This document shows, piece after piece, positions 5,143 to 8,485 of a DNA stretch of 53,298 bases. Positions within the stretch are counted from its first letter, which is position 1, and each line of letters opens with the position of its first letter. The notes below the pieces were generated by a model. That model saw only the letters and a list, made by a program, of their open reading frames with translations. It did no database searches and was not told where the DNA came from. The DNA comes from a virus (lineage: Duplodnaviria; Heunggongvirae; Uroviricota; Caudoviricetes). The translations under genes and the position numbers were made by a program. The stretch lies in IMG/VR virus record IMGVR_UViG_2558860170_000008. The stretch is one strand, 5' to 3'.

Positions 5143-5162
5143 CGATCGACAAAAACGATCGA
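5143..5162. promoter_or_regulatory. Two closely spaced GATC sites (CGATCG palindromes) upstream of com/mom
   Basis: ATCGATCGACAAAAACGATCGAT seen directly upstream of com; Mu mom is known to be regulated through Dam-methylated GATC sites and OxyR; functional equivalence here is inferred. Confidence 0.35.
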
Positions 5163-5352
5163 TTTGATTTATTTAATTGATACAACAAATAACACGAAAT
5201 GTCATTAGCGAAAATTTATGAGTTTGATCACTAATTTTAAACGGTGCTGTAACGCATAAGTGCTGAATGATTGTACATTTGAATACCGCAAAGCAAACAA
5301 ATCAACTAATTTATAGAAGTCAATTGGTTAATTGCCAGCGTAAGAGGCTGCT

Positions 5353-5646
5353 ATGGACAATCATGTAACGACGAGAAATCGAAAAATGATTGAAAATGCG
5401 GAAATCTATAATGATTATTTTTCCGATTATTCAGATGCCTGCAAATACAGTTCGAGTGCGGGAGAGTTCATATGCTTCAACTTTTTTATTAAATCTTATG
5501 TTTTTCCTCCACAGCAAGAAGATGGAGGTGTGCCACCTCCTGAAATCACTTTGCACCGTATAGCCTCCGTCTCAATGATGGAGCAACAGGCTAATGAGCT
5601 GTATAGCATTCTGGGAACGATTCTACAAAAGCGTGAATCGGACTAA
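5353..5646 (+). CDS. Hypothetical protein, low-GC, opposite strand to neighbouring prophage genes
   Basis: 97-aa ORF with ATG start in an AT-rich block; no recognised domain. Confidence 0.35.
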   Translation: MDNHVTTRNRKMIENAEIYNDYFSDYSDACKYSSSAGEFICFNFFIKSYVFPPQQEDGGVPPPEITLHRIASVSMMEQQANELYSILGTILQKRESD

Positions 5647-5813
5647 TGATACCGGTTCATTTGCCTGCCCGGATGGGGAAGCAGGATTGACTGCTCCATA
5701 AGCAGCTATATTTCTGAATACGAAATACTATCCAGCGATTACATATGGCTGGATAGCGGCAAAGATGTTTTCATTAGTGTCAAACCGGCAGAGGACACCA
5801 CCGGTTTGTATTG

Positions 5814-6068
5814 TTACATCATGGTACTGTCAGTTCCGGGCTGAGCCGGGTCTGGTTGCTCTGGCTGCGCGTCGGTTTTCGGCTCATTATCAGCATCACT
5901 GGCCGCAACTGCTGGCCCAATAAGTTTTGCCAGCACTTCATCAACGTAAGTGTCGATTTGTGCCTCAAAATCCTTGCGGACCTGCGCTTTCAGCAACTTA
6001 TTTACTTCACCGGAATACAGTGCCTGTTTTACCAGGTCTTCAGTGACGGTGCCTTTAATTTCTGGCAT
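5814..6068 (-). CDS. Hypothetical small acidic protein
   Basis: 84-aa ORF with ATG start and AAGGAGG Shine-Dalgarno just upstream. Confidence 0.5.
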   Translation of the reverse strand: MPEIKGTVTEDLVKQALYSGEVNKLLKAQVRKDFEAQIDTYVDEVLAKLIGPAVAASDADNEPKTDAQPEQPDPAQPGTDSTMM

Positions 6069-6103
6069 GTATATCCTCCTTATGCGGGAATAAAGCCCTG
6101 CAA

Positions 6104-6286
6104 TCAGGGCTGGGTCGGGTCTTTTGGGAGCGGAGTTACCTGCGCTGTTTTACTGAGTTTTTCAGCTGCTGCGTCCTCAATTTTGCGGCGAACATAATTT
6201 CTGATGGCCTTATAACCACCACTCACCAGATATAACGCACATACTGCCGTGCAGAAATACAATAAAATAAGCTGTAAAAATGTCAT
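6104..6286 (-). CDS. Small single-pass membrane protein
   Basis: Start at internal ATG (MTFLQLILLYFCTAVCALYLVSGG...) preceded by GGGAGG; hydrophobic N-terminal segment. Confidence 0.5.
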   Translation of the reverse strand: MTFLQLILLYFCTAVCALYLVSGGYKAIRNYVRRKIEDAAAEKLSKTAQVTPLPKDPTQP

Positions 6287-6430
6287 TATCCCTCCCAATT
6301 ATTGACATGGTGTTGACACCGGTAATATCTGTTAGGTAAAAAGGTGCACTGCATTTTTTGCTTTGGATATAACGATCTTTTTGCCGCCGGTTTCTTGTTT
6401 TCCCTTACCGGCGGCATTTTTTTATCCTGC

Positions 6431-8485
6431 TTACGCGTTATTCACTTCCACCACGATACTGTCAATCAGTACCGGGTAAGTCGCATTTTTAGTGATATCG
6501 GTCACGCGCAACTTGTCTGCCGTAAACGTGCCGACCGGAGACTGCGACAGCATGAATGGTGTCCCGTCCTTACCATCAATGACCGGCGTCACCTCAATAC
6601 TGTTGTTACCGGCAAAACGGAAGCCCAGCGTATGCCATTCGTTATTAAATGCGCCGAATGACCCCAGCTTCGTGTTCTGCGCCGTGTTTCCTTTGTGATA
6701 CATCACGTTAAGGTCTGTGGCATCGCTCTGTACGTAGAACGATGCCAGCAGGTTATGACCGGCATTTCCTTCCAGGGTAACCCCTTGCGGCAGGGCAGAA
6801 ACCGGCCAGTACAGCGCCAGTGCGTACTGATTAGCCGTAAGCGCGCCATCGAGTTTAAAACGACAACTGACAAGACCACCTTTACCCAGCAGGTCCGCAC
6901 CATTACCAGCATCATGCTCAAGGTACCAGGGGGCTCTTCCTGTTTCCTTGGTCAGTTTCATTGCCTTACCCCCGCTGGCTCCGGCATCATCCACGATTTG
7001 AGCCTTGCCACCTCCGGCAGCCCAACCCTGTGGTGTCAACCGTCCTTCAGACTCAGATGCCCGGTAAGCAAATAGCGTACTCATCGTCGTGGTGTCTGCG
7101 GGTGGCGTGGACGGTTTTGATGGTGTATCAGGTGACGGCTTCTCATCCGGTGGTGTCACGGTCTGCCCGCGCATCAGTTCAGCCGTGCGCCCTGCATGGA
7201 GCATAATAGCTGAGGCCAGACGGTCTGAAATGACGCCCCTGCGTGCCCATGAGCTGAAATGGCTGTCACGCTGTGTCGAAACAAAACTGCCCTGGGTTCG
7301 GGATGCTGCACCGTAATACCCGACAGCCACAATATCCGGGTCTTCCGCCGGAGCATTCGTTGGCGTGCTCTGTCCATTCTCATCCGTCAGGAACGGTACA
7401 AAGAAAATTTTCTGTGCTTCCTTGCCTTTGTAGCCACCGTATACTGCCTCATATTTATCGGTGCCAGCGTTTTTCCAGTAATACGTGGTATCACCGCAAA
7501 TCCACGGCACCGTGGTGGCATTTCCACTCACGCACTGCGCAGCAAGCGGAGCCAGGTCAGTTCTGAACTGCTGAACCATGGCCGTGAATAAACTATTATG
7601 CTGCTGGCTTCCTGAGGCAAGGTCTGCCTCTCCCTGCATCCAGACCACAGCCAGAAGTTTGTTTTTCGGGTTTTTCGCCAGCGCGACTTTGGTGCGGCTT
7701 ACCAGGTCCTGATACAGAGGTTTACCGGCCCCCCAGCGTGAAGAATCAGCGGAAGCACCGCTGGCCTCACTGAATGAGCCGTCGGCTCCAGTGGTGAATG
7801 CTGACCCGCCACGACAACAGGGCACCAGAAGTATCCCGGCATTCTGTGGGATATAGGGAAGCAGTTTTTTGGCAATATGCAACCCCTGACCGACAGTCCC
7901 GTACTGGCCTTTTGCCAGATCAGCTTTCGGGTGGTTTATCCCGCTCATATCCTGAACATCATGCAGGCAGTGGTCTGCCGGAATGATGTCGTTGTATGTA
8001 CACGACGTACCGTTGGGCGTTACCGTACTGCGGCGTGCCAGTTGCTTAATGCGTGGGTCCGGGCGGTCAAACGAATCCGGTAACGGCAGCCCCTCGCCGT
8101 AGGCCATGCCATTTGACTGACCCGCGAGAATGACAACAAAGTAATATTCCGGCTCTGAACTGCTGCCATTCGTGCTACCGGAAGGCCCGGCGTTATCCGG
8201 TGCATTCCAGTCGGAGGGCGTGAGCGTTCCGGCCACGTCAGATGTGATTGGAATGATGCCAGTCACGCCTGAACTGGTGATTTCTGCACTGGGATTACCG
8301 GATACCGGCATTACCCATAATGGCTCTTTCGTGCTGAAGCGGATCACGCAGTCTGCGAAGGTGATCCCCCCTTTATTACCCGAAGGGCGGAAAGGGCTTT
8401 CAATAAATGCCACCGTGCCACCGGCAACCTTGACTGAAAACTCTCCGGGCATGGCGGAGAGCATTTTCCACTTGGAGTCTGACAT
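6431..8485 (-). CDS. Prophage-encoded sialate O-acetylesterase-like protein (NanS-p-like; SASA/SGNH esterase core)
   Basis: 684-aa ORF; esterase-type block ...VVILAGQSNGMAYGEGLPLPD... with GQSN motif, flanked by N- and C-terminal domains typical of prophage NanS-p-type proteins as I recall them. Confidence 0.7.
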   Translation of the reverse strand: MSDSKWKMLSAMPGEFSVKVAGGTVAFIESPFRPSGNKGGITFADCVIRFSTKEPLWVMPVSGNPSAEITSSGVTGIIPITSDVAGTLTPSDWNAPDNAGPSGSTNGSSSEPEYYFVVILAGQSNGMAYGEGLPLPDSFDRPDPRIKQLARRSTVTPNGTSCTYNDIIPADHCLHDVQDMSGINHPKADLAKGQYGTVGQGLHIAKKLLPYIPQNAGILLVPCCRGGSAFTTGADGSFSEASGASADSSRWGAGKPLYQDLVSRTKVALAKNPKNKLLAVVWMQGEADLASGSQQHNSLFTAMVQQFRTDLAPLAAQCVSGNATTVPWICGDTTYYWKNAGTDKYEAVYGGYKGKEAQKIFFVPFLTDENGQSTPTNAPAEDPDIVAVGYYGAASRTQGSFVSTQRDSHFSSWARRGVISDRLASAIMLHAGRTAELMRGQTVTPPDEKPSPDTPSKPSTPPADTTTMSTLFAYRASESEGRLTPQGWAAGGGKAQIVDDAGASGGKAMKLTKETGRAPWYLEHDAGNGADLLGKGGLVSCRFKLDGALTANQYALALYWPVSALPQGVTLEGNAGHNLLASFYVQSDATDLNVMYHKGNTAQNTKLGSFGAFNNEWHTLGFRFAGNNSIEVTPVIDGKDGTPFMLSQSPVGTFTADKLRVTDITKNATYPVLIDSIVVEVNNA

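Follow-up and report, generated by a model that had tools for sequence, protein, structure and literature searches.

The region between the gin invertase gene and the com and mom genes of a Mu-like prophage was analysed in a 53,298-nucleotide stretch of DNA from a tailed virus (Caudoviricetes; IMG/VR record IMGVR_UViG_2558860170_000008). The whole stretch is referred to as the window. We consider it likely that the gin–com interval is a conserved accessory module of an enterobacterial Mu-like prophage lineage, and not a private insertion, and that it encodes an intact NanS-p enzyme with a swapped N-terminal domain (N-domain). The distance from the gin stop codon to the com start codon is 3,474 bp in the window versus 94 bp in Mu. 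This agrees with the initial annotation, which described gin of Mu as lying almost directly before com–mom and about 3.3 kb as interposed here. The content listed there for the interval also holds, as all four open reading frames (ORFs) exist: a 684-residue esterase, two small ORFs with strong Shine–Dalgarno sequences and a plus-strand ORF of low guanine–cytosine (GC) content. The features of the interval and its boundaries are as follows.

4205–4942, minus strand: mom (Pfam Mom, RefSeq coordinates; 78% amino-acid identity to Mu Mom)
4896–5096, minus strand: com (Pfam Zn_ribbon_Com, RefSeq coordinates)
5140–5173, minus strand: palindrome rich in GATC, adjoining com on its upstream side and marking the downstream boundary
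5353–5646 (RefSeq 5386–5646, 86 residues), plus strand: low-GC ORFan of 86–97 residues between DUF826 and com
5814–6068, minus strand: DUF826 protein, 84 residues (Pfam DUF826, E = 6.4e-16; phrog_311, E = 5e-28)
6104–6286 (ORF 6104–6298), minus strand: DUF1378 protein (Pfam DUF1378, E = 1.2e-31; phrog_494)
6382–6416, no strand assigned: terminator-like hairpin with a 10-bp GC-rich stem, directly 3' of the esterase stop codon
6431–8485, minus strand: three-domain sialate O-acetylesterase of the NanS-p family, 684 residues (Pfam and PDB matches)
6434–7081, minus strand: C-terminal lectin-like/jelly-roll domain (DUF6645), residues 469–684 (6YP6, Pfam)
7202–8152, minus strand: NanS-type SGNH type II catalytic domain, residues 112–428 (alignment to 3PT5)
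8201–8485, minus strand: all-beta N-domain, residues 1–95
8486–8570, minus strand: gin–esterase spacer, 85 bp
8571–9143, minus strand: gin-type serine invertase, upstream boundary of the block (Pfam Resolvase, E = 1.6e-51; HTH_7)

Distribution of the gin–com block and identity of its esterase

Complete E. coli genomes (n = 5,426) were surveyed, and blocks were counted at a query coverage of at least 80%. The layout gin–esterase–DUF1378–DUF826–com–mom was found in about 193 of the 5,426 genomes (25 of the window type and 168 of the O157 type), and the compact Mu layout (gin–com–mom without cargo) was found in 44. Among the Mu-like prophages of E. coli in RefSeq, a set over-weighted with O157:H7, more carry the block than lack it. 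The idea that the block is unusual for a Mu-like genome was therefore largely overturned for E. coli prophages by these counts (168 plus 25 against 44 compact). Segment 4200–9200 of the window was 99.9–100% identical in about 12 unrelated E. coli genomes, at different chromosomal positions, and N-domain DNA was present at up to three places per genome. Such variation in site and copy number implies that transposition has been recent.

The Mu-like prophage of O157:H7 and other Shiga-toxin-producing E. coli carries the block in diverged form, with its gene order unchanged. In record LC727881, where it is labelled 'inserted Bacteriophage Mu-like phage', the order is gin, a fusion of N-domain and esterase, DUF1378, DUF826, an opposite-strand gene, com and mom, and the N-domain is of the same kind (61% identical). 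This copy differs from the window in its esterase body, which is 70–73% identical to that of the window and closer to alleles of Shiga-toxin (Stx) phages (81–84%), and in the gene in its variable slot, which is another one and is frameshifted. The prophage is presumably that named Sp18 of strain Sakai in the literature. In IMG/VR, baseplate J, tail fibre, gin, esterase, DUF1378, DUF826, com and mom followed one another in this order at all 34 N-domain loci, which were retrieved with the N-domain as the query and so measure constant synteny and not frequency among Mu-like phages.

The esterase matched the Pfam families SASA (E = 1.5e-13) and DUF6645 (E = 7e-68). Residues 110–428 matched PDB entry 3PT5 (NanS; E = 1.8e-117) and residues 469–683 matched PDB entry 6YP6 (NanS-p C-terminal domain; E = 7.1e-98), with a Pro/Thr/Ser-rich linker joining the catalytic and lectin-like parts. 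Active-site roles have been assigned in NanS to Gln18 (oxyanion hole), Ser19 and His301 (PMC9063846); the aligned residues of the window protein, Gln123, Ser124 and His409, are intact. Homologues were found by tblastn in 349 phage records, mostly of Stx-converting phages, with 63–68% amino-acid identity between the window protein and Stx-phage yjhS/NanS-p. The call of a NanS-p-like esterase was thus strongly confirmed by Pfam, tblastn and the two PDB entries; the label in the genome annotation is 'DUF6645 domain-containing protein'. Three features of the NanS-p family were present (the catalytic domain, the active-site residues and the lectin domain) and two were absent (DUF1737 and a lambdoid late-region context). 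From these alignments, the esterase is predicted to be an intact NanS-p-type enzyme and a distinct architectural variant in a different type of phage. The GC content of its gene is 0.52–0.58.

The NanS-p proteins of Stx phages (933W L0105; phi24B gp84; 6YP6) share with the window protein the catalytic and DUF6645 domains (63–68% identical), downstream DUF1378 and DUF826 genes, an A-run and hairpin after the stop codon, and the lack of an obvious signal peptide. They differ in carrying DUF1737, in place of which the window protein has an unrelated all-beta domain of about 90 residues, and in the setting of the gene, which in Stx phages is downstream of Q/stx and upstream of the holin gene in the late operon, whereas that of the window is between gin and com/mom. 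Chromosomal NanS (YjhS; 3PT5) has a homologous SGNH type II domain with the Gln, Ser and His residues conserved, but its solved chain is a single domain of 337 residues, whereas the window protein is phage-borne and has extra N- and C-terminal domains. NanS itself is exported by means of a signal peptide and is encoded in the nanCMS operon.

Mu, D108 and SfMu resemble the window in gin and mom, which are homologous (76–78% amino-acid identity for mom), in the GATC cluster adjoining com and in MuA and MuB. Mu differs in having no cargo, with 94 bp between gin and com, and in an invertible segment of about 3 kb versus about 1.2 kb in the window. The mom matches included Mu, D108, SfMu and the Yersinia vB_YpM phages, none of which was among the esterase matches listed (the best 40 of 349 records); of these phages, only Mu had its gin–com interval looked at directly. 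The sole Mu-related esterase records among the same best 40 of 349 were two Stx-phage records with an inserted Mu-like phage.

Nucleotide homology to Mu (9246–8713) breaks off within gin, at 8713, and is picked up again within mom, at 4893, so that the last ∼140 nucleotides of the window gin have no nucleotide homology to Mu gin. No terminator was predicted on the coding strand of the gin–esterase spacer. At the other boundary, the palindrome at 5140–5173 was compared with Mu 35664–35697 (the gin-stop/Dam-site cluster in the mom control region). The local alignment score was 28, which is weak (shuffled sequences, 17.9 ± 2.6, maximum 31), and gives weak support to the idea that something of the ancestral gin stop and Dam-site cluster survives at the com-proximal junction. 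On this evidence, the block appears to lie upstream of a mom control region that is still intact.

The hairpin after the esterase stop codon has a fold energy of −20.1 kcal/mol (z = −6.0) and is preceded on the coding strand by A7. Read on the opposite strand, it therefore resembles an intrinsic terminator (hairpin plus U7). In each of the four contexts compared (the window, an Stx phage, the O157 Mu-like prophage and locus L044, a more distant Mu-like prophage), the esterase stop codon is followed by an A-run and hairpin. The stem sequences differ among contexts, with position and polarity conserved (L003, ∼5760–5790; L002, ∼8075–8110; L044, ∼12345–12375). In Stx phages, no antisense transcription is expected at this hairpin.

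The DUF1378 protein probably starts at ATG 6286, which gives 60 residues with GGGAGGG 4 nucleotides upstream, and has a hydrophobic N-terminal stretch. The DUF826 protein is acidic (16 Asp/Glu versus 8 Lys/Arg), with AGGAGG 7 nucleotides upstream. Identity to the Stx-phage counterparts is 53% for DUF1378 and 38% for DUF826. The plus-strand ORFan lies in a region with a GC content of 0.375–0.378 (5001–5600) and has a promoter-like site with 9 of 12 matching positions at 5332–5361. It gave no match in Pfam, PHROG or PADLOC, and its homologues were found only in E. coli and Shigella (79–99% identical). The frame stays open in a variant that is 88% identical in nucleotide sequence, with 11, 6 and 15 mismatches at codon positions 1, 2 and 3, respectively; as the frame is kept open and changes are fewest at position 2, it is probably a real small gene. 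Among the loci compared, the ORFan is present in some copies of the block only, and the slot between DUF826 and com is variable, holding different small opposite-strand genes. No defence-system match was found in PADLOC for any of the four block proteins; a PbeC match (E = 0.0076) was below threshold and was ignored.

The N-terminal domain and its relation to lambdoid alleles

The N-domain (residues 1–95) had no match in Pfam or PHROG. DUF1737 was not matched in the window esterase in Pfam, whereas the Stx allele matched it with E = 1.6e-11, and the window N-domain is 15% identical to the Stx N-terminus. Structure prediction gave a compact, confidently folded all-beta domain of about 90 residues followed by a flexible Ser/Gly/Pro linker, in contrast to the one helix and three strands reported for DUF1737. 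A comparison of the predicted structure with known folds gave no significant match to any decoration or tail protein. An exhaustive HMMER search of 1.84 billion representative proteins with the N-domain retrieved only E. coli and Shigella fragments of the same protein and one distant relative, from Salmonella (30% identity, E = 4e-6). This relative, too, is joined to a NanS-type esterase, and its gene follows gin in a Mu-like prophage. Word-indexed protein searches found only fragments of the same proteins, and a scan of the GTDB species representatives found nothing. Every N-domain found belonged to an esterase at this locus in a Mu-like prophage, of E. coli, Salmonella or one further enterobacterium.

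Locus L044 (baseplate J 78% identical) encodes a 784-residue esterase with an N-domain that is 39% identical, located between a tail-fibre assembly gene and com and without DUF1378 or DUF826. P2-like phages of the P88 type carry a DUF1737-bearing esterase placed after the lysis genes. In this small sample, the N-terminal module then appears to follow the phage backbone, and it seems to be freely exchangeable within the esterase family.

Other arrangements were seen in the same comparison. In L044 a DUF1353 gene lies between the esterase gene and com, and the gene after com encodes a C5 cytosine DNA methyltransferase in the place of mom (13628–14837), a different DNA-modification module under what seems to be com-type control of the same kind. 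Two further IMG/VR loci encode NanS-type esterases with unrelated N-terminal extensions, of about 50 residues in L047 (6696–9071, adjoining a gin-like gene) and about 25 residues in L046 (9947–12070).

The lambdoid comparison was made with Stx2a phage LC567818, in which the order is stx2AB, yjhS/nanS-p, a 59-residue ORF (DUF1378), an 81-residue ORF (DUF826) and holin, and in which the esterase comprises DUF1737, SASA and DUF6645. The esterase, DUF1378 and DUF826 genes have the same order and similar spacing in the window and in LC567818, which identifies the module as one of lambdoid type. The lambdoid affinity proposed in the initial annotation is therefore upheld: the module is collinear with the nanS-p-to-holin segment of the Stx2a phage, including the 3' hairpin. 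The esterase is about 66% identical to the compared Stx allele, and nucleotide identity (about 70%) is confined to the esterase body. Amino-acid identities by domain are given below in the order window versus O157 Mu-like, window versus Stx and O157 Mu-like versus Stx.

N-domain: 61%, 15%, 19%
Catalytic domain: 70%, 70%, 81%
Second linker: 25%, 24%, 78%
Lectin domain: 73%, 76%, 84%

Across the IMG/VR loci, identity to the window was 52–100% for the esterase body, 94–100% for com/mom and 92–100% for baseplate J. The esterase bodies look reshuffled with lambdoid alleles. On the simplest reading, an esterase with a Mu-specific head has long been resident at this locus, and its catalytic and lectin parts would have been repeatedly replaced from co-resident lambdoid nanS-p alleles. 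The module would thus be common to both phage types through old recombination, with either direction of transfer. The proposed module exchange between phage types stands as far as the lambdoid type of the module is concerned, but a recent or simple capture does not fit an esterase that is about 66% identical, small proteins that are 53 and 38% identical and an N-domain that is specific to the Mu lineage. The tail-fibre/invertase region as the point of exchange remains plausible, and is weakly indicated by the break in Mu homology inside gin and by the weak palindrome match.

Putative function and alternative readings

The enzyme would remove the acetyl group at O-9 of sialic acids, for example of mucin-derived Neu5,9Ac2, and the Neu5Ac would thereby become usable through the host nan pathway, as has been proposed for Stx-phage NanS-p. 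No obvious signal-peptide-like hydrophobic stretch was seen by eye at the N-terminus of the esterase, which points to release by prophage lysis; the esterase would reach its substrate when an induced prophage lyses its host, and kin cells would profit from the freed Neu5Ac. In the Mu-like lineage, the DUF1737 head would have been replaced by the beta-domain of about 90 residues, which stays with the backbone. The block was also examined as a putative moron, a cargo unit expressed from its own promoter and terminator: consensus promoter matches were weak (four found versus 6.7 expected in shuffled sequence), and the hairpin after the esterase gene faces the opposite strand. No persuasive element in common with Mu Plys, PI or Pmom was seen by eye. 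As there is no predicted terminator in the spacer and a weak promoter-like site lies inside gin, read-through from gin in the lysogen is possible, the alternative being expression only late.

NanS-p esterases have been discussed almost solely as cargo of Stx and other lambdoid phages. A full-text literature search found no paper in which NanS-p and Mu-like phages are both mentioned; the presence of nanS-p in non-Stx prophages is remarked on in general terms in one paper. The same enzyme is a stable accessory of a widespread E. coli Mu-like prophage lineage, including that of O157:H7, with a related fusion of N-domain and esterase at the Salmonella locus. The Mu-like copies raise the number of sialate esterase genes per genome, and nanS-p knock-out or typing studies limited to lambdoid prophages can miss a copy. 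The block is otherwise ordinary phage mosaicism and standard for its lineage. What the domain swap adds is modest; with it comes a clean natural experiment on what the N-terminal module does.

Several observations weigh against a conserved module with an active NanS-p enzyme. The RefSeq genome counts are biased by heavy sampling of O157:H7, and some more distant Mu-like prophages have the esterase without DUF1378 and DUF826, from which the three genes are not an obligate unit. The gene-order comparison used one Stx-phage locus. A tblastn search of the phage collection with DUF826 found only the two Mu-like inserts and did not link the DUF826 of Stx phages; given this result and identities of 38–53%, homology of the small proteins to the Stx versions rests on Pfam and PHROG profiles. 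NanS-p activity is predicted for the window allele from relatives that are 63–70% identical and from the conserved residues. The block has no convincing promoter, the nearest candidate being a weak sigma-70-like site inside gin (8641–8613) just upstream of the spacer. No Mu C-activator site (TTAT-N6-ATAA) was recognised before the esterase gene or com; the single match in the window (6080–6093) lies between the DUF1378 stop codon and the DUF826 start codon and is within chance expectation.

A different role for the N-domain was considered, in which it is the counterpart of DUF1737 and anchors the enzyme to a Mu-type particle; the virion-associated esterase would then have as its substrates the O-acetylated sialoglycans of mucus or of cell surfaces, in a receptor-modifying or mucus-interaction role. 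The precedent is phi24B gp84, which decorates the capsid and whose DUF1737 forms a hexamer and binds the capsid hexons (2026 preprint). The class of N-terminal module tracks the backbone and not the esterase body (DUF1737 in Stx and P2-like P88-type phages, the beta-domain in Mu-like phages and another in L047), no signal peptide is obvious by eye, and a compact, confidently folded domain on a flexible Ser/Gly/Pro linker would suit such an anchor. However, the domain has no significant structural match to a known decoration or tail protein, and the gene follows gin, outside the recognised Mu late operons, with no late promoter found. The N-domain is also only about 60% identical between two lineages in which baseplate J, com and mom are 92–98% identical, which is unlike a tight fit to a conserved capsid (capsid genes being outside this comparison), and, at the end of an esterase acting on carbohydrate, a small beta-sandwich might just as well serve as a carbohydrate-binding module. 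We regard virion association as attractive but unlikely. The same low standing is given to its generalization, that phage NanS-type esterases may be modular virion-displayed enzymes with a backbone-specific anchor as the N-terminal module (DUF1737 in lambdoid phages such as phi24B, the beta-domain in the Mu type). If true, a Mu-like myovirus would bear a surface sialate O-acetylesterase with which to engage or cut through O-acetylated sialoglycans in mucus, functionally like the haemagglutinin-esterases of animal viruses. The latter (influenza C virus, betacoronaviruses) are likewise virus-encoded sialate O-acetylesterases of the SGNH fold with a lectin domain (PMC9063846), a functional analogy for which no homology is claimed. 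They differ in being envelope glycoproteins with a proven receptor-destroying role, whereas virion association of the Mu-like enzyme is hypothetical.

Two further readings fared worse. Its genes could be decaying pseudogenes hitch-hiking in a defective prophage, as the reduced invertible segment, the tail-fibre variant annotated as partial and the frameshifted variable-slot gene of O157 might indicate. This is improbable, since the esterase, DUF1378 and DUF826 genes are intact, with strong Shine–Dalgarno sequences and conserved catalytic residues, ORFs remain intact across alleles that have diverged to 52–70% identity, and the different sites and multiple sites per genome imply recent transposition. 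Least credible of all is the simplest reading of the initial annotation, in which this one Mu prophage recently picked up a lambdoid nanS-p segment in a single event. The gene order is that of the Stx-phage segment, characterised Mu-type phages are without the esterase (from direct inspection of the interval in Mu and from the matches listed for the others), and the prophage adjoins remnants of another prophage (a tail-fibre C-terminal fragment, a DUF4376 tail-fibre-assembly-like protein, an IpaH-type gene and a pin-like invertase). Against this, nucleotide identity to the Stx allele is about 70% and in the esterase body only, the N-domain is not lambdoid, and the identical block is found in many unrelated E. 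coli at different sites, with diverged versions in O157, Salmonella and a further enterobacterial Mu-like prophage. A conserved module of the Mu-like lineage is the reading that we prefer.

Prophage backbone and flanking DNA

The backbone of the window is a Mu-like transposable prophage on the minus strand. All of the features expected of such a phage were found: the MuA transposase, MuB, genes for a Mu-type baseplate and tail, gin together with its invertible segment, com and mom at the right end, and varied host sites. The Mu-type baseplate and tail genes follow GemA in the RefSeq annotation of an identical prophage copy. The backbone features outside the gin–com interval are the following.

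9214–10546: invertible segment (inverted repeats 9214–9299 and 10461–10546)
33191–33703: GemA (Pfam GemA)
38769–39710: MuB (Pfam Phage-MuB_C)
39784–41874: MuA (Pfam Mu-transpos_C)

The prophage ends were placed at ∼4078 (right) and ∼43095 (left) by comparison with E. coli strain HH35 (NZ_CP136993.2), which carries the identical block and in which a copy of the same prophage sits inside a diguanylate-cyclase gene. The prophage is about 39.0 kb in length, versus 36.7 kb for Mu. The invertible segment has about 1.2 kb between its inverted repeats, compared with about 3 kb in Mu (the G segment); it holds a single tail-fibre-assembly gene (9634–10155, plus strand), which currently faces against the tail-fibre gene (10187–11068, minus strand), and the alternative fibre end is a partial gene according to RefSeq. 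Mu packages about 39 kb by the headful mechanism. A 39.0-kb genome may leave little packaging room, and the short invertible segment may offset the 3.4-kb cargo.

A 5-bp target duplication was looked for at the prophage ends in the window and none was seen. The host-side flank of the right end (4060–4077; GAATATTCACCTGGCAGC) and the inner left end (43080–43095; AAATGATTCACCTGGTTA) have the 10-mer ATTCACCTGG in common. Its presence at both ends could be due to chance or to target preference, or it could be left over from a rearrangement between Mu copies.

A second prophage has left remains beside the right end of the Mu-like prophage, at 1–462 and 2938–4009, both on the minus strand. They comprise a pin-like serine invertase (1–462), cut by the start of the window, a DUF4376 tail-fibre-assembly-like protein (2938–3561) and the C-terminal part of a tail fibre (3512–4009; phrog_2636, profile positions 398–567 of 568). 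On the opposite side of the Mu-like prophage there is a 'Prophage tail fibre N-terminal' fragment (43018–43707, minus strand). With tail-fibre fragments on both sides, the Mu-like prophage may have inserted into a lambdoid side-tail-fibre gene.

Outside the Mu-like prophage and adjoining the tail-fibre remnants, positions 932–2758 (plus strand) encode a 608-residue type III effector of the IpaH/SspH type, with an LRR_TTSS N-terminus, leucine-rich repeats and a NEL E3-ubiquitin-ligase domain (E = 2.5e-75). The GC content of this gene rises from about 35% in its 5' half to about 54% in its 3' half, and the presence of an IpaH-type gene suggests a Shigella-type host. Just beyond the left end, an insertion-sequence cluster at 44855–48777 contains two IS3-family (rve) ORFs and one IS110-family ORF.

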